This document shows, piece after piece, positions 6,105 through 15,655 of a stretch of 45,203 nucleotides of DNA; position 1 is the first letter of the stretch, and each line of letters begins with the position of its first letter. Both the position numbers and the translations under genes were made by a program. The notes beneath the pieces were generated by a model. It saw only the letters and a list, made by a program, of their open reading frames with translations. It did no database searches and was not told the DNA's origin. The stretch comes from a virus. The DNA lies in the UHGV virus genome UHGV-0169311; one strand, 5' to 3'.

Positions 6105-6311
6105 TTAATGGCTAAGGCCATGTCCTAAACCGTTTAGATAAACCTCAACCAGCAAATCTTTGGTGTAGGTACGTTCGATGCCACGGTGAAGATACAGGCG
6201 ACCGCGTGCGTTAGCAGATGCGGTCCAGGTTGAGTCTTTGTGTTTTACAAGCATCCCCGGCTGAACTGCGCCGCGGTTTACTGTCTGTGTACCGTAGTGC
6301 TGATGAACCAT
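6105..6311 (-). CDS. Hypothetical protein (69 aa from ATG; ORF extends to 6470 from a GTG)
   Basis: In-frame ATG at 6311 preceded by GGAG (ctggagtacatcATG); the longer GTG-initiated form has no RBS. Confidence 0.4.
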   Translation of the reverse strand: MVHQHYGTQTVNRGAVQPGMLVKHKDSTWTASANARGRLYLHRGIERTYTKDLLVEVYLNGLGHGLSH

Positions 6312-7034: not shown

Positions 7035-7329
7035 CTCAATCCCCTCGTTTGCCCTTGTCGCCAGGCTGGCGGAACGTTTCAAACCTACTGCGCGTTAATC
7101 TCACCACCTCATTCCGGTCTTCGTATGCCCCGGACGGCTTCTTCGTGGGCGTCCTGCCTAGGTGGTTGTGTTGATGGAGTAAGTAAAACACCGCTTTACC
7201 ATTAAGTCAAGTAATGCAGATTAAAAAGGTAAAGCATAGCTGTATGTTGGGCGAAATTTATCCAGATTAGAGATGATTGCATCAACTAAAAGTGTGTATG
7301 ATGAAAAAAAACATCATTGAGGGTGGGAT

Positions 7330-7529: not shown

Positions 7530-7560
7530 AGAAACCCCGGCGCGGTGGCCGGGTTGGAGA
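7530..7560. terminator. Bidirectional hairpin between convergent genes (stem CCCGGC / GCCGGG, 7536..7553)
   Basis: 6-bp GC stem with 6-nt loop; on the minus strand it is followed by GTTTCTTTTG, on the plus strand by TTGGAGATTATTTT. Confidence 0.45.
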
Positions 7561-7986
7561 TTATTTTCTAGATGATGTTGGGGACCAAGGTAACGTTATA
7601 GTATCTAACACTGTGTTTTTGAACATATTTTCAAAAACTGTTTTTGTACATACATATACATAATTTTCAAAAAACCAAGCATTTTCATTATAAAAATCCT
7701 CAGTTACTTCTTCATCGAGGTCACACTCAAATGTTAGTGTCAAGGTAGCCTCTGCCTTGAACAATACATCCTCACCATCATCAAAATCTTTTTTATCGCG
7801 AGGGAAACCAGTTATCGATGGCTTAACTTCAATAAAGAGCCAATTTCCATCTTCATCTTTTTGAGGAACAACGTGATGCTCAGAAAATTTTAAGCTATAT
7901 TTTCCGCCTTCAGAATTATCACTGTCGTCGATAAAAAGGGAAGAACCCTCGAGATCAAATCCCTTAAAGCGAATTTTATCAAGCAT
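7561..7986 (-). CDS. Hypothetical acidic protein, translationally coupled to hicB
   Basis: ATG at 7986 overlaps the hicB TGA (TGATG). 141-aa Asp/Glu-rich product; AT-rich DNA. Confidence 0.5.
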   Translation of the reverse strand: MLDKIRFKGFDLEGSSLFIDDSDNSEGGKYSLKFSEHHVVPQKDEDGNWLFIEVKPSITGFPRDKKDFDDGEDVLFKAEATLTLTFECDLDEEVTEDFYNENAWFFENYVYVCTKTVFENMFKNTVLDTITLPWSPTSSRK

Positions 7987-8459
7987 CAATGTGGCACTCC
8001 GTTGTCTACTGAAACTTCCCAATAGGTCTCTTCTGTACGTCTACGGGATGAGAAGAAAGTAACTTCTCTAACATCCCTCGGTTTTTCAAAGTGGTAGTGA
8101 ACCTCTTTTTTCCCATTAACTGACTCACTGACAGCCTGTTTTACATAATCGTTTAAAGTCATATTCTTAGCTTTAGCAGCTAAATATGCTTTTTTATGCA
8201 GGGATTCACCTATCCGGATGTTAAACGAACCACTCATTGTCTTATCTGGAGATTTTCCTATCTCTTCACAAGTGGAGAGGTAATCGTCCACGGCCTCCTC
8301 AAAGGCTGCACGGAGTTCTGCAACCGTTGCACCCTCATAAGTGACGAGATCATTTATACATTCGAGTTTTCCATGCATCACCCCATCTTCAAATGAAATG
8401 CTGGAGCTACCATAGTAACCTTTGTATTTCATCAAGTTATTCATGATCATCAATCTCAT
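7986..8459 (-). CDS. hicB: HicB-family antitoxin with C-terminal extension
   Basis: MKYKGYYG ... NDLVTYEGATVAELRAAFEEAVDDYL ... SGSFNIRIGESLHKKAYLAAKAKNMTLNDYVKQAV matches the HicB pattern (RNase H-like fold plus RHH) from memory; about 45 extra residues follow. Start ambiguous (ATGs at 8459, 8450, 8444). Confidence 0.75.
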   Translation of the reverse strand: MRLMIMNNLMKYKGYYGSSSISFEDGVMHGKLECINDLVTYEGATVAELRAAFEEAVDDYLSTCEEIGKSPDKTMSGSFNIRIGESLHKKAYLAAKAKNMTLNDYVKQAVSESVNGKKEVHYHFEKPRDVREVTFFSSRRRTEETYWEVSVDNGVPH

Positions 8460-8691
8460 CTAACAGCTGTTTAACTTCTTCCAAGACGTACCTTTTGAGG
8501 GTGTTTTCAGGATGAGGCTCATGAAAAATGACCAATCTATCAACACGTTGGTTGTAAAATTTACGGCCAGAACCTCGTTTAGCATTCAAAAGCTTGAAGC
8601 CATACTGGTTCATGAGAGTAACGAACTCATCCCAAGTAAAATTTTTGGGTAAGCCGTCTAACTTTGACTTTAGCTTTTCCTTTCTTCCCAC
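8437..8691 (-). CDS. hicA: HicA-family toxin (mRNA interferase)
   Basis: 84-aa ORF with GFKLLNAKRGSGRKFYNQ ... LVIFHEPHP ... LKRYVLEEVKQLL, the HicA/YcfA pattern (from memory); directly upstream of and overlapping hicB. Confidence 0.7.
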   Translation of the reverse strand: MGRKEKLKSKLDGLPKNFTWDEFVTLMNQYGFKLLNAKRGSGRKFYNQRVDRLVIFHEPHPENTLKRYVLEEVKQLLDEIDDHE

Positions 8692-8718
8692 GAAGGATAC
8701 ATCCTCTGTTAAAGGTAG

Positions 8719-8739
8719 TGCAACTGAAATCTAGTTGCA
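8719..8739. promoter_or_regulatory. Inverted repeat TGCAACT-N7-AGTTGCA upstream of hicA
   Basis: Perfect 7-bp arms, 28-48 bp upstream of the hicA start on the minus strand; candidate autoregulatory operator. Confidence 0.3.
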
Positions 8740-8851
8740 AGCTATGCTATCTATAGACAAAATGTTTCATTGTTATATCAGAAGATACCCGATCTGTTTC
8801 ACCTTCAACTACTATAATTTGTTATAAGCTATCAACCGGTGGAACTGCGAA

Positions 8852-8950
8852 TTAGCCGCTGGGTGTTGCGTATCCATCGATGATAAACCATGCCATAAAC
8901 CCCATAGCTACGATGAACACCAAGATCGGAAACACTATACCAATTCTCAT
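8852..8950 (-). CDS. Small hydrophobic peptide (32 aa), not in the ORF track
   Basis: ATG preceded by AGGGA; MRIGIVFPILVFIVAMGFMAWFIIDGYATPSG is a single predicted transmembrane helix; between the repressor paralogs and hicA. Confidence 0.3.
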   Translation of the reverse strand: MRIGIVFPILVFIVAMGFMAWFIIDGYATPSG

Positions 8951-8995: not shown

Positions 8996-9388
8996 TTACT
9001 CGGCATCGCCCTTAATCCGCCGCCCCATATATTTGGCGTACAGATCGTCGAGTTCCTTCAGGCGCAGTGATACCGCCTTAAGAACTCCACCCTGATCCTC
9101 TTCGGGGAGTTGACGGAAAAGGCGTAAAAGCTCTTGCTCATTACTTTTTAATCCATCATTGGGCCCTATATCCTGCCCCAAAACCCAGGCTAAATTCACA
9201 CCAAGCGCATCAGCTAGCTTAAGTGCGGAGTTTTTCCCAATAGTTCCCCTTACAAACCAGTTGTTAACCGACTGGGATGTTACGCCACAAATTCTGGCCA
9301 GATCTGCTTTTGAGAGATGTTTACTATTCGTGATCTCATTGAGTCGTCTGACCTGTGGGTTATCTGATTCGTGTGTATTTTTTCTCAT
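8996..9388 (-). CDS. HTH repressor-like protein (paralog 2)
   Basis: 130 aa from the ATG at 9388 (track start is GTG 9403). HTH segment SKADLARICGVTSQSVNNWF and C-terminal helix LPEEDQ ... LRLKELDDLYAKYM. Paralogous to 9408..9791. Confidence 0.55.
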   Translation of the reverse strand: MRKNTHESDNPQVRRLNEITNSKHLSKADLARICGVTSQSVNNWFVRGTIGKNSALKLADALGVNLAWVLGQDIGPNDGLKSNEQELLRLFRQLPEEDQGGVLKAVSLRLKELDDLYAKYMGRRIKGDAE

Positions 9389-9407
9389 GTACAAGAGTAT
9401 CACTTAG

Positions 9408-9791
9408 CTAATCAGCATCGCCCCTGATTCTGCGATTCATGTACTTGGCATATAGTTCATCGAGTTCCTTCAGACGCAGGGAGAAGATCCTTATCATATT
9501 CTGCTGTTCTTCTTCCGGTAACTGTCTGTAGAGCTCCAGAATACGTTGTTCATCAGGCTTAAGACCATCCTTCTCTCCAACATCCTCACCAAGTAGCCAG
9601 GGGACGGACACCCCTGCAGCGTCAGCAACCGCTAATGCAGAACTTTTGCTGATTCTTCCTGTTTTGAACCAACTGGAAACAGCTTGCTTACTGACGCCAG
9701 CAACCCTGGCCATCTCTGTTTTAGAGAAACCTTTCCTGTTCAGTTCTGTAAGCCTGGAAATCAGCTCATTTGTCATTGTTTTTTCGCTCAT
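9408..9791 (-). CDS. HTH repressor-like protein, probable prophage repressor (paralog 1)
   Basis: 127 aa; HTH segment SKTEMARVAGVSKQAVSSWF; short, no peptidase domain; divergent from the Cro-like gene across an operator-bearing intergenic region. Confidence 0.6.
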   Translation of the reverse strand: MSEKTMTNELISRLTELNRKGFSKTEMARVAGVSKQAVSSWFKTGRISKSSALAVADAAGVSVPWLLGEDVGEKDGLKPDEQRILELYRQLPEEEQQNMIRIFSLRLKELDELYAKYMNRRIRGDAD

Positions 9792-9800
9792 TTCATTAGT

Positions 9801-9817
9801 GTAAATGATCGCTTTAC
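9801..9817. promoter_or_regulatory. Operator-like palindrome GTAAA-N7-TTTAC (copy 1)
   Basis: gtaaatgatcgctttac in the repressor/cro intergenic region. Confidence 0.5.
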
Positions 9818-9850
9818 TGTCAGGTAGGCATTCATGGTTTGACTTTTATA

Positions 9851-9867
9851 GTAAAATGATGCTTTAC
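9851..9867. promoter_or_regulatory. Operator-like palindrome GTAAA-N7-TTTAC (copy 2)
   Basis: gtaaaatgatgctttac, 50 bp from copy 1 and 23 bp upstream of the Cro-like start. Confidence 0.5.
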
Positions 9868-9889
9868 TTTTGCCATCTAAGGAGGTCCT

Positions 9890-10114
9890 ATGACTGGTAT
9901 TGAGAAAGCTATTCAAAAGTTCGGCACAGGTGCGGCACTCGGAAGAGCGCTTGGATTTTCAAAAATGACAATTTCCAACTGGAAAAAAACTGGCATTCCG
10001 CCCGATCACATTCTCTCTGTTTTTGAGCTTACGGGGGTCACACCGCATGAGTTGCGGCCTGACTTATATCCAAATCCAACCGATGCCTTACCAGTGCAAG
10101 AAACGAGGACGTAA
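9890..10114 (+). CDS. Cro-like HTH regulator (YdaS-like)
   Basis: 74 aa with RBS GGAGG; HTH LGRALGFSKMTISNWKK; ELRPDLYP motif as in YdaS-type Cro proteins (from memory). Confidence 0.6.
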   Translation: MTGIEKAIQKFGTGAALGRALGFSKMTISNWKKTGIPPDHILSVFELTGVTPHELRPDLYPNPTDALPVQETRT

Positions 10115-10116
10115 AC

Positions 10117-10656
10117 GTGCAATCACTATCACTTCATCAAAATAGCGGATATCAACCGGCTGCGATGATAAATCGCAATCAACCTGTCTCGGTAGATAAA
10201 CATGACCAGATCCGCGATGCCGTTCGTGCGTGGGCGGGTGTAGATGGTCAGGATGTCGTTTCTGCTCTGATCATCGAAGAGTACCAGGCTCAAGGGGGAG
10301 ACGAGATCACTTTCCCTGATGACCTCAGCCGACAGCGTCAGAAGCTTTTCCGCTTTCTGGATAACCATTTCAACAGCGAACGGTACCGCGAAAACGTTCG
10401 CCAGCTGACTCCGGCAATCCTCGCTGTCCTGCCGATTGAATACCGCAATCGTCTGCTACCAGAAGACAACGTAATGGCTCGTCTGGCAAGGCTGGAGAAG
10501 GAAACCAGCGAAGCGAAGATTGCTGTCGCAATGGATGCGCCACGTCATCAGAAGCTGAAAGAGTTGAGCGAGGGGATCGTGGAGATGTATCGCGTTGACC
10601 CTGGGTTAACCGGTCCGTTGATGGAAATGGTGCAGATTATGCTGGGGGCTATATGA
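10117..10656 (+). CDS. YdaT-like protein (occupies the CII position)
   Basis: 179 aa; TPAILAVLPIEYRNRLL resembles the YdaT motif IPAILAILPRELRHRL (from memory); immediately follows the Cro-like gene. Confidence 0.45.
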   Translation: MQSLSLHQNSGYQPAAMINRNQPVSVDKHDQIRDAVRAWAGVDGQDVVSALIIEEYQAQGGDEITFPDDLSRQRQKLFRFLDNHFNSERYRENVRQLTPAILAVLPIEYRNRLLPEDNVMARLARLEKETSEAKIAVAMDAPRHQKLKELSEGIVEMYRVDPGLTGPLMEMVQIMLGAI

Positions 10657-14293: not shown

Positions 14294-14320
14294 AACCCGC
14301 TACGGCGGGTTTTCTTTTTT
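14294..14320 (+). terminator. Rho-independent terminator
   Basis: AACCCGC-TACG-GCGGGTT stem-loop followed by TTTCTTTTTTT. Confidence 0.6.
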
Positions 14321-14383
14321 TACTACTGACAGAAAATTAACAATTTGTGCTCTTAAAACGTTGATCATTTCCGCGCATAGGTA

Positions 14384-14403
14384 TACTGTATAAAAACACA
14401 GTA
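14384..14403. promoter_or_regulatory. LexA box (SOS operator)
   Basis: TACTGTATAAAAACACAGTA: perfect CTGT-N8-ACAG, 19 bp upstream of the dinI-like start. Confidence 0.7.
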
Positions 14404-14421
14404 CATGCAATTGGGGCCATT

Positions 14422-14655
14422 ATGAAAGTTGAATTAACCATTGATCGCATGAAAGAACTTCCTAAAGGCGCAGTACCAGCACTGGAGAAAGAACTGCTTA
14501 AGCGCCTGAATGATCACTATGACAATTGCAGGCTCACAATCCGCCGTGCCGGGGCCGATGGGTTAAGTGTTTTTGGTGGTGACAAGGACGATAAAAAGAA
14601 AATTGAATCAATCCTCCAGGATACCTGGGAAAGCGCTGACGACTGGTTTTATTAG
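14422..14655 (+). CDS. dinI: DinI-family protein
   Basis: 77 aa; colinear with E. coli DinI (MRIEVTI ... LSV.G..K.DK..I..ILQ.TWESADDWF) from memory. Confidence 0.8.
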   Translation: MKVELTIDRMKELPKGAVPALEKELLKRLNDHYDNCRLTIRRAGADGLSVFGGDKDDKKKIESILQDTWESADDWFY

Positions 14656-14772
14656 AATTGCGCTTAAGGCTGGCGCGCATTTTTCAGAATACCGCAATTT
14701 GCGTAACCCTCTGATGCTGCTGCCGACAATCTTTAATCGCGTCTGTTAGTCGCTCGAAGGGAGAACATAAAT

Positions 14773-15021
14773 GTGAGTGATTCAGCTTTGCAAACGTCAG
14801 AAGACAACTGGTATGACATTGTAAGAAGGTCTGACGGCTGCGTGGTGTTTAGCTTTCCTTCATCGGGCAGGCATCTAATTTATCGCGTCAATGGCATGGT
14901 TTCTATGCGGCCTTTGCTGGATGATGAAGAGGTCTTTACTCCTAATGGTTTTATGCAGTTTATTCACCGTCTCGGCTACCGGGTAACCCCACCTTCTGAT
15001 AATATGAAATCAACGGTCTGA
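14773..15021 (+). CDS. Hypothetical protein (GTG start); candidate antirepressor by context
   Basis: 82 aa, RBS GAAGGGAG; second gene of the LexA-box/dinI unit. Confidence 0.4.
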   Translation: MSDSALQTSEDNWYDIVRRSDGCVVFSFPSSGRHLIYRVNGMVSMRPLLDDEEVFTPNGFMQFIHRLGYRVTPPSDNMKSTV

Positions 15022-15055: not shown

Positions 15056-15655
15056 ATGGCGCACGAACTACAACTCATCAAGCATTCCTCAGGAATCCTG
15101 ATCCCCGCTACGCCGGAGACCAGTGATTTACTGCAATCAAAAATCAAACTCGGCTCCGTACTGGTGGCTGAGTTCCGGCAGGTACGCAACCCGGCCTTTC
15201 ACCGTCGTTTCTTCGCGTTACTCAATCTCGGTTTCGAATACTGGGAACCCACCGGCGGGGCAATCTCCTCCAACGAACGCAAGCTGGTAACCGGCTATGC
15301 CAAGTTCCTTGCCTCATTCGCGGGAAGTGAAGCAGCACTCCTGGATGCTGCTGAGCAATATCTGGACCGCATCGCCGATAAGCGCGCCGGTAGTATCAGC
15401 ATCTGCAAATCCTATGACGCATACCGTGCATGGGTGATCATCGAGTCTGGCCACTACGACGCTATCCAGCTTCCTGACGGCACTCTTCGTAAACACCCCC
15501 GCAGCATTGCCTTCGCCAACATGGACGAAACCGAGTTCCAGCAGCTGTACAAAGCCGCGCTCGATGTTCTGTGGCGCTGGGTATTGTCCCGGGCATTCAA
15601 GGACCAGCGTGAAGCGGAAAACGCCGCATCGCAACTCATGAGCTTTGCGGGGTGA
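15056..15655 (+). CDS. Phage nin-region protein (DUF1367-like, from memory)
   Basis: 199-aa ORF with conventional start; MA..LQLIKHSSGILIPATPE N-terminus. Confidence 0.5.
   Translation: MAHELQLIKHSSGILIPATPETSDLLQSKIKLGSVLVAEFRQVRNPAFHRRFFALLNLGFEYWEPTGGAISSNERKLVTGYAKFLASFAGSEAALLDAAEQYLDRIADKRAGSISICKSYDAYRAWVIIESGHYDAIQLPDGTLRKHPRSIAFANMDETEFQQLYKAALDVLWRWVLSRAFKDQREAENAASQLMSFAG

Follow-up and report, generated by a model that had tools for sequence, protein, structure and literature searches.

Within the virus genome UHGV-0169311, whose full stretch of 45,203 nucleotides is referred to as the window, the interval 8996..9791 encodes two adjacent paralogous repressors of the helix-turn-helix (HTH) class. 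We propose that the second of them, lying further from the divergent cro-position gene, is probably a captured orphan repressor that provides heterotypic immunity against phages of another group, here termed type C (GfoR-type). The repressor family itself is known; its appearance as a tandem orphan-repressor cassette appears to be undescribed for enterobacterial lambdoid phages.

In the proposed mechanism, the gene nearest cro encodes the resident repressor, which would bind GTAAA-N7-TTTAC sites at the rightward lytic promoter PR (9851..9867), at its leftward counterpart PL (7183..7199) and beside its own gene (9801..9817). A type-C repressor, of the kind represented by GfoR of Gifsy-1 and predicted to read TAAAC-N5-GTTTA, would have been captured without its own operators, promoter or cro, and would now be carried as cargo 19 nucleotides behind the resident repressor gene in the lysogenic operon. 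If co-transcribed and translated in the lysogen, the captured protein would occupy the operators of an incoming type-C phage and switch off its early promoters, leaving the lysogen immune to two phage groups at once. During the SOS response, a LexA-controlled GfoA-like antirepressor (14773..15021) presumably inactivates the proximal repressor. We take Gifsy-1 of Salmonella Typhimurium 14028 and a prophage in E. coli strain 2022CK-00450 to be type-C prophages.

Should this proposal be correct, a portable cassette for a second immunity is present in some Escherichia coli and Salmonella lambdoid phages and makes the lysogen immune to two Gifsy-type groups. The gene nearest cro would then be insufficient on its own for reading immunity groups from a genome, and transcriptional immunity would join the known defence cargo of the repressor operon.

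Recognition helices and operators at tandem and single loci

The proximal gene (9408..9791, minus strand) encodes 127 amino acids and carries a recognition helix of type A, SKQAVSSWFK, which is GfhR-like. The distal gene (8996..9388, minus strand) encodes 130 amino acids from its ATG, or 135 from an alternative GTG start at 9403, and carries the type-C recognition helix TSQSVNNWFVRG, of the GfoR type. The two proteins are 55% identical over 121 residues (77% positives, E=1e-50, BLASTP) and share the C-terminal ending ...SLRLKELD(E/D)LYAKYM..., while their recognition helices differ (KQAVSSWFKTG versus SQSVNNWFVRG). An earlier note on this DNA had described two adjacent, co-oriented paralogs of 127 and ~130 amino acids with a common architecture, the same C-terminal ending and a diverged HTH recognition region; all of this was borne out.

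To relate recognition helix to operator, ~230 related loci were gathered from species-representative genomes, IMG/VR viral contigs, annotated phages and E. coli genomes; ~190 of them were classed by the recognition helix of the repressor, and operator patterns were counted per locus. Among the 81 loci with a single type-A repressor (SKQAV[ST][SG]WF, proximal-like), 77 contained three GTAAA-N7-TTTAC sites and none contained TAAAC-N5-GTTTA. The 91 loci with a single type-C repressor ([ST][SA]QSVNNWFV, distal-like) all carried between two and four TAAAC-N5-GTTTA operators, with four copies in 84 loci, and GTAAA-N7-TTTAC was absent apart from one site in one locus. At these loci the type-C repressor is the sole repressor and adjoins its own cro, and the sites are paired, lying 47 bp apart in the right operator and 46 bp apart in the left (example fragments TTAAACATTATGTTTAT ... 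GTAAACATTTAGTTTAA).

The tandem loci with a type-C distal gene (n = 12) follow the proximal repressor. Three GTAAA-N7-TTTAC sites were present in the nine loci with a type-A primary repressor and none in those with a type-B (L003, L004) or type-D (L199) primary, and TAAAC-N5-GTTTA was found in none of the twelve. The layout of the resident operators is the same in tandem and single loci. Because the 81 single type-A loci carry the same sites, the resident operators belong to the proximal repressor, and the proximal gene, whose helix type alone the operators track, is assigned as the resident repressor. Across the survey (loci L006-L030, L034 and L120-L195), helix variants track half-sites: KQAV[ST][SG] with GTAAAGC, PQAVNG with (G/A)TAAACC, [SA]QSVNN with TAAAC(A/T) and PQSVNG with TTAAG(C/T)C. 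These pairs make up a small natural specificity table for the repressor family.

TAAAC-N5-GTTTA does not occur in the window, where the sole match with one mismatch is at chance level, and a search of the window for type-C half-sites at spacings of 0 to 30, inverted or everted, returned no conserved site. A half-site cluster, TAAACCGTTTAGATAAAC (6126..6143), was rejected as an operator; it lies inside an open reading frame (ORF) in the kil region and is also present in single-repressor loci of other immunity types. Thus the second repressor has the DNA-binding domain of another phage group's resident repressor, and neither the window nor any of the 12 tandem loci holds operators cognate to it. 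It probably lies outside the resident switch, a reading head of another immunity group with no predicted target in the part of its own prophage that the window covers.

Origin, mobility and selection of the distal gene

The earlier note had taken the second gene for a duplicate of the first. The DNA-binding domain of the distal protein is 79-84% identical to those of stand-alone type-C repressors, versus 48% to that of its proximal neighbour. The distal gene thus did not arise by local duplication, and its recognition helix is shared, without change, by the 91 stand-alone type-C repressors. In two tandem loci (L004, from E. coli 1368KP, and L117, from IMG/VR) the distal protein matches, at 100% identity and with two synonymous differences in the gene, the stand-alone repressor that a Citrobacter pasteurii prophage carries along with four operators of its own. 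In L004, nucleotide homology to the complete type-C module starts 9 nucleotides upstream of the distal ATG, so that the type-C operators and cro fall outside the homologous stretch.

The junction between the two genes (9389..9407, minus strand) consists of the 19 nucleotides from the proximal stop codon to the distal ATG. Its sequence, GCTAAGTGATACTCTTGTACATG, is identical in the window and in loci L003, L004, L117 and L199, and similar in the Salmonella locus L196. The same junction and distal cassette are found behind primary repressors of type A (the window, phage mEp237 and Salmonella loci), type B (AR_0118, 1368KP) and type D (L199); a mosaic boundary lies within the primary gene, near residue 55. 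The E. coli and Salmonella phages that bear the cassette differ in their replication and recombination modules. In single-repressor relatives, homology to the window ends exactly at the proximal stop codon and resumes at the left operator. This interval is a hypervariable cargo slot that elsewhere holds unrelated genes, including a parA-like ATPase, a 353-residue protein with an ASCH protein, DUF1828, DUF6932 with a 310-residue protein, and others (L218-L236 from Salmonella, L120-L125). Several of these cargo genes may be undescribed defence genes.

From the distal stop codon through both repressors and cro into the cII-like gene, the window agrees at 96% identity with mEp237, a viable lambdoid phage that shares the two-repressor arrangement. 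The mEp237 counterpart of the proximal repressor has 97.6% identity with it; that of the distal gene (mEp237_038) is annotated as hypothetical or HTH only, and literature searches on mEp237 and SEN34 returned nothing on a second repressor.

The distal gene is under purifying selection, as indicated by a ratio of nonsynonymous to synonymous substitution rates (dN/dS) of 0.19 against mEp237 and by a dN of 0.20 against other alleles, for which synonymous sites are saturated. The distal ORF is intact in all tandem loci examined. Its 90%-identity cluster comprises 61 distinct sequences, found on hundreds of E. coli and Salmonella contigs. The tandem arrangement was present in 4 of 80 type-A viral contigs (~5%), in 3 of the 80 contigs closest to the distal protein, in 4 of 5426 complete E. 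coli genomes and in none of 25 species-representative loci; two isolated viable phages, mEp237 and Salmonella phage SEN34, retain it. Complete type-C modules occur in 11 of the 5426 E. coli genomes, and the presumed target phages therefore share hosts with the cassette. SEN34 (L034, 3090..3902) and 13 related viral contigs (L205-L217) combine a type-D primary repressor with a distal paralog whose helix reads SKQAVNAWFA.

Alternative roles of the second repressor

Several observations weigh against the capture proposal. The loci behind the helix-to-operator count are not phylogenetically independent. No promoter of its own is evident in the sequence of the distal gene, and inspection of the junction revealed no Shine-Dalgarno sequence before the distal ATG. 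The SEN34-type distal gene was found in tandem only (13 of 13 loci), and no stand-alone phage or operator was found for its helix (KQAVNAW); the comparison therefore does not establish, for all tandem pairs, immunity against a circulating type. With 63% identity between their C-terminal parts, the two proteins may form heterodimers. Finally, N101 and R104, two otherwise nearly invariant residues of the C-terminal helix, are not preserved in the distal protein of the window, and the same type of loss is seen in two further diverged distal alleles, those of L119 and SEN34 (L034). The nearly invariant QNMxRI motif of the long C-terminal helix (residues ~99-106) is replaced by GGVLKAV in the window, NDVIQAI in L119 and QDIMQVI in L034; other distal alleles retain the canonical motif. 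This loss may indicate that the protein has a specialised role and was not simply captured.

One such role, the main rival, would be modulation of the resident switch by protein contacts, without binding of foreign DNA, with the distal paralog acting either as a heterodimer with the primary repressor, held together by the C-terminal helices that both have, or as a decoy or buffer for the antirepressor that raises the SOS threshold. The similarity of the C-terminal parts, which is higher still in the L004 and L117 alleles, is compatible with this idea, as are the changes at nearly invariant helix residues shared by the window, L119 and SEN34 distal alleles, and a fold resembling (in a weak match) that of SinR, whose helical C-terminus docks an antirepressor. 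Furthermore, because GfoA and GfhA each act on both GfoR and GfhR (PMC3121763), both paralogs are very likely bound by the resident antirepressor, and a degree of buffering could hardly be avoided. However, an intact DNA-binding domain would be needless for such a function, yet the type-C helix is kept identical across alleles whose synonymous sites are saturated. Moreover, a genuine type-C immunity repressor can take over the slot completely, and the resident operator layout does not differ between tandem and single loci. We consider protein contacts an unlikely explanation for the cassette. Dual immunity specificity, heterodimer regulation and a decoy for antirepressors were the three functions that the earlier note had offered for a duplicated repressor; the comparative evidence favours the first of them, without the origin by duplication, the distal gene having the character of a captured type-C repressor. 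The observation made in that note is thereby confirmed and its interpretation partly supported.

A variant restricted to the window, L119 and SEN34 alleles, taken as an old and specialised lineage with a C-terminal helix diverged at N101/R104, is that the second slot has become either an insulated second immunity channel or a tunable antirepressor sink. The N101/R104 change would then prevent pairing with the primary repressor, or would give escape from, or differential binding of, the shared antirepressor. We regard this as quite doubtful; if true, antirepressor-driven crosstalk between prophages in polylysogens would gain a further level of regulation.

It is very improbable that both paralogs act on the resident GTAAA-N7-TTTAC operators, for example by dividing half-sites or whole sites between them, and form the switch together. 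The TAAA core common to all operator types, together with the strong and weak half-sites of the resident operators, makes weak cross-binding conceivable from sequence, but the sites and their asymmetry are no different in the 81 loci with only a primary repressor, one and the same distal gene occurs with operators of types A, B and D, and the type-C sites have C at a position occupied by G, T or A in the resident half-sites. The first two of these points do not support the picture in the earlier note of the two repressors and the operator pair as one duplicated unit.

That the distal gene has no function and is a passive passenger left by recombination between heteroimmune phages would suit the high mosaicism of lambdoid immunity regions, a gene without its own promoter and ribosome-binding site and an arrangement as rare as that observed (~5% among type-A viral contigs and 4 in 5426 E. 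coli genomes), but is extremely unlikely for an ORF that is intact in every tandem locus examined, has a dN/dS well below 1, persists across E. coli and Salmonella in varied phage backbones with three primary immunity types, and is kept by the viable isolated phages mEp237 and SEN34.

The Gifsy-like switch and its surroundings

The region into which the orphan repressor appears to have been captured is best explained as the immunity region of a lambdoid prophage of the Gifsy kind, with induction by way of an antirepressor. Gifsy repressors are small and uncleaved, and are released from DNA by a small antirepressor whose gene follows a LexA box and dinI outside the immunity region (PMC3121763). 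The window contains a corresponding SOS induction module (14384..15021, plus strand), comprising a LexA box (CTGT-N8-ACAG, 14386..14401), dinI (14422..14655, plus strand, Pfam E=3.8e-26) and a GfoA-like antirepressor gene of 82 codons with a GTG start (14773..15021, plus strand). A terminator-like hairpin (near 14295..14325) precedes the module and a DUF1367 gene (15056..15655) lies beyond it; the order matches that of the Gifsy prophages, where a LexA-controlled dinI/GUG-start antirepressor/irsA-like operon stands after a terminator.

The two published primers for cloning gfoA have their sites at the ends of the 82-residue ORF, with 1 and 3 mismatches. The 24-nucleotide annealing part of the published gfoR forward primer, which encodes KEKTHQIN, corresponds exactly to codons 2-9 of the type-C repressor of locus L017, a protein 63% identical to the distal paralog; the gfoR reverse primer had no match in the fetched loci. 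For the proximal type, identity is 92-96% with Salmonella proteins encoded just ahead of a parA-like gene, the order also seen in the Gifsy-3 constructs. Primer match, protein identity and gene order provide indirect evidence that both paralogs are Gifsy-type (GfoR/GfhR) non-cleavable repressors.

The domain content of the two proteins agrees with this assignment to small HTH repressors (about 130-155 amino acids) without an S24 domain. Both match HTH_3 and Phage_CI_repr only in Pfam, both stop after a helical hairpin at residues 127 and 130, and searches of Pfam and PDB found no Peptidase_S24 self-cleavage domain in either. The proteins do not fit the self-cleaving repressors of the lambda CI or LexA type, which have a C-terminal S24 peptidase domain with an Ala-Gly cleavage site. 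The AlphaFold2 model of the distal protein (predicted local distance difference test, pLDDT, 84) has a five-helix HTH domain (residues 11-69), a linker and a helix-turn-long-helix C-terminus (82-92 and 96-126). A sequence search of solved structures gave spurious ubiquitin matches and generic HTH proteins, with no close relative. A fold search of PDB with this model gave generic HTH_3 proteins and a weak SinR-like match, and nothing at E<=0.001. SinR, of the SinR/SinI system of Bacillus subtilis, ranked third (E=0.027, template modelling score ~0.4-0.5) and likewise has an HTH followed by C-terminal helices, which in SinR serve oligomerisation and antirepressor docking. Unlike the paralogs, SinR does not belong to a phage immunity system, and there is no sequence relation beyond the HTH.

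The likeness to GfoR/GfhR and GfoA/GfhA (PMC3121763) extends from small HTH repressors without a self-cleavage domain, divergent from the genes in cro and cII position, to the terminator, LexA box, dinI and GUG-start antirepressor downstream of the replication genes. GfoA and GfhA each inactivate both GfoR and GfhR, despite the different operators that these repressors read (PMC3121763). In contrast to the window, where a GfhR-like and a GfoR-like repressor stand in tandem and the second is without operators, the studied Gifsy prophages are described with each repressor alone. In the published constructs, the deletion starts at parA, immediately behind the tagged gfoR or gfhR (PMC3121763), and at the likely GfhR loci in Salmonella Typhimurium, identified by gene order and annotation only, the repressor is followed by a parA-like gene with no distal paralog. 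By gene order and annotation, then, the tandem pair is likely not a feature of the published model prophages, and the reported Gifsy heteroimmunity then does not conflict with the captured-repressor proposal. Since a single SOS-controlled antirepressor likely acts on both repressors, the arrangement, if it works as proposed, would bear on prophage competition and co-induction in polylysogenic pathogens.

The position of the cassette recalls lambda cI-rexA-rexB, where cargo also lies between the repressor gene and the left operator and operator pairs flank the region. In lambda, rexAB are co-transcribed with the repressor gene, are expressed in the lysogen and exclude other phages. Unlike in lambda, the repressors here have no S24 cleavage domain and the cargo comprises itself a repressor, together with hicAB and a yoaK-like gene; exclusion would take the form of transcriptional immunity, not abortive infection. 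A temperate phage with an acquired repressor of another immunity group, as suggested here by sequence, is also known in mycobacteriophage Mcgavigan (PMC12700041). Deletion showed that its Bxb1-like repressor is dispensable for lysogeny and required for heterotypic superinfection immunity (PMC12700041). In Mcgavigan, however, the repressor family and host are unrelated to those considered here, the gene sits in a separate acquired operon and is not a tandem paralog, and the phenotype comes from deletion, whereas here we infer it.

In the resident switch, the right operator contains GTAAATGATCGCTTTAC (9801..9817), nearest the repressor gene and with its strong half-site GTAAAGC on the minus strand, and GTAAAATGATGCTTTAC (9851..9867), over the rightward lytic promoter. 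The earlier note had recognised these as two operator-like 17-bp palindromes 50 bp apart; positions and spacing hold, although palindromy in the strict sense extends no further than the outer 5+5 bases. In every resident site a strong half (GTAAAGC) faces a weaker one (GTAAAT/A). A search for the same palindrome elsewhere in the prophage, as that note had suggested, identified a third exact match, OL1 (GTAAAACACCGCTTTAC, 7183..7199), which overlaps the putative PL -10 element, and a degenerate fourth site, OL2 (GTAAAGCATAGCTGTAT, 7229..7245), whose centre is 46 bp from that of OL1. This left pair lies 2.6 kb from the right operators. Three occurrences of GTAAA-N7-TTTAC in the window compare with 0.05 expected, and none of 100 shuffles gave three. 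All three exact sites are kept in mEp237 and other relatives, OL1 being identical in mEp237 and L005, and the OL2 element GTAAAGC...TGTA(C/T) is found at the same distance in 15 type-A loci.

The left operator has a conserved layout in 15 loci, in which TTGACT is followed after 5-6 nucleotides by an operator whose last bases plus T form TTTACT, and the right operator has the same layout. Because of this conserved arrangement, the operator is predicted to cover the spacer and -10 element of both lytic promoters, so the sites flagged as operator-like now stand as likely operators. Putative PL (7182..7210, minus strand) would run leftward from a -35 element TTGACT (7210..7205), a 17-nucleotide spacer and a -10 element TTTACT (7187..7182). 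By analogy, putative PR (9839..9868, plus strand) would drive cro from TTGACT (9839..9844), an 18-nucleotide spacer and TTTACT (9863..9868). A consensus promoter scan proposed an alternative PR, TAGGCA-16-TATAGT at 9825..9852, and found no minus-strand promoter for the repressor operon; hand-picked lysogenic promoter candidates (CTGACA-17-ACTAAT) were discarded for their poor fit to the start codon. Rfam and tRNA scans of the window were empty.

In mEp237 and Salmonella relatives, an upstream ATG (9874..9876 in the window, minus strand) gives a long repressor isoform of 155 amino acids, comparable to the N-terminally extended GfhR* of Gifsy (PMC3121763). In the window this ATG lies 85 nucleotides from the main ATG (9791), not 84, owing to a 1-nucleotide insertion between the right-operator sites (50 versus 49 bp). 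The insertion puts it out of frame, and the long isoform is therefore not encodable; it is likewise out of frame in the IMG/VR locus L119.

As expected from the earlier note, the repressor genes diverge from a cro-position gene. Rightward of the operators follow a YdaS-type HTH gene in cro position (9890..10114, plus strand, 74 amino acids; Pfam YdaS_toxin E=5.6e-12, PHROG 35), a YdaT-family gene in cII position (10117..10656, plus strand, 179 amino acids; Pfam YdaT_toxin E=2e-25, CII-like in the mEp237 annotation), and then O and P. The Pfam names YdaS_toxin and YdaT_toxin are misleading here; by position and the mEp237 annotation, both genes are switch regulators.

The remaining cargo of the lysogenic operon (7536..8950, minus strand) comprises, all on the minus strand, a gene for a yoaK-like small membrane protein of 32 amino acids (8852..8950), the toxin-antitoxin pair hicA (8437..8691) and hicB (7986..8459), and orf153 (7561..8022; 153 amino acids, PHROG 19522). 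A terminator-like hairpin (7553..7536) closes the operon. In Citrobacter (L202), yoaK lies directly after a stand-alone type-C repressor gene. This gene order suggests that the distal repressor and yoaK were captured together.

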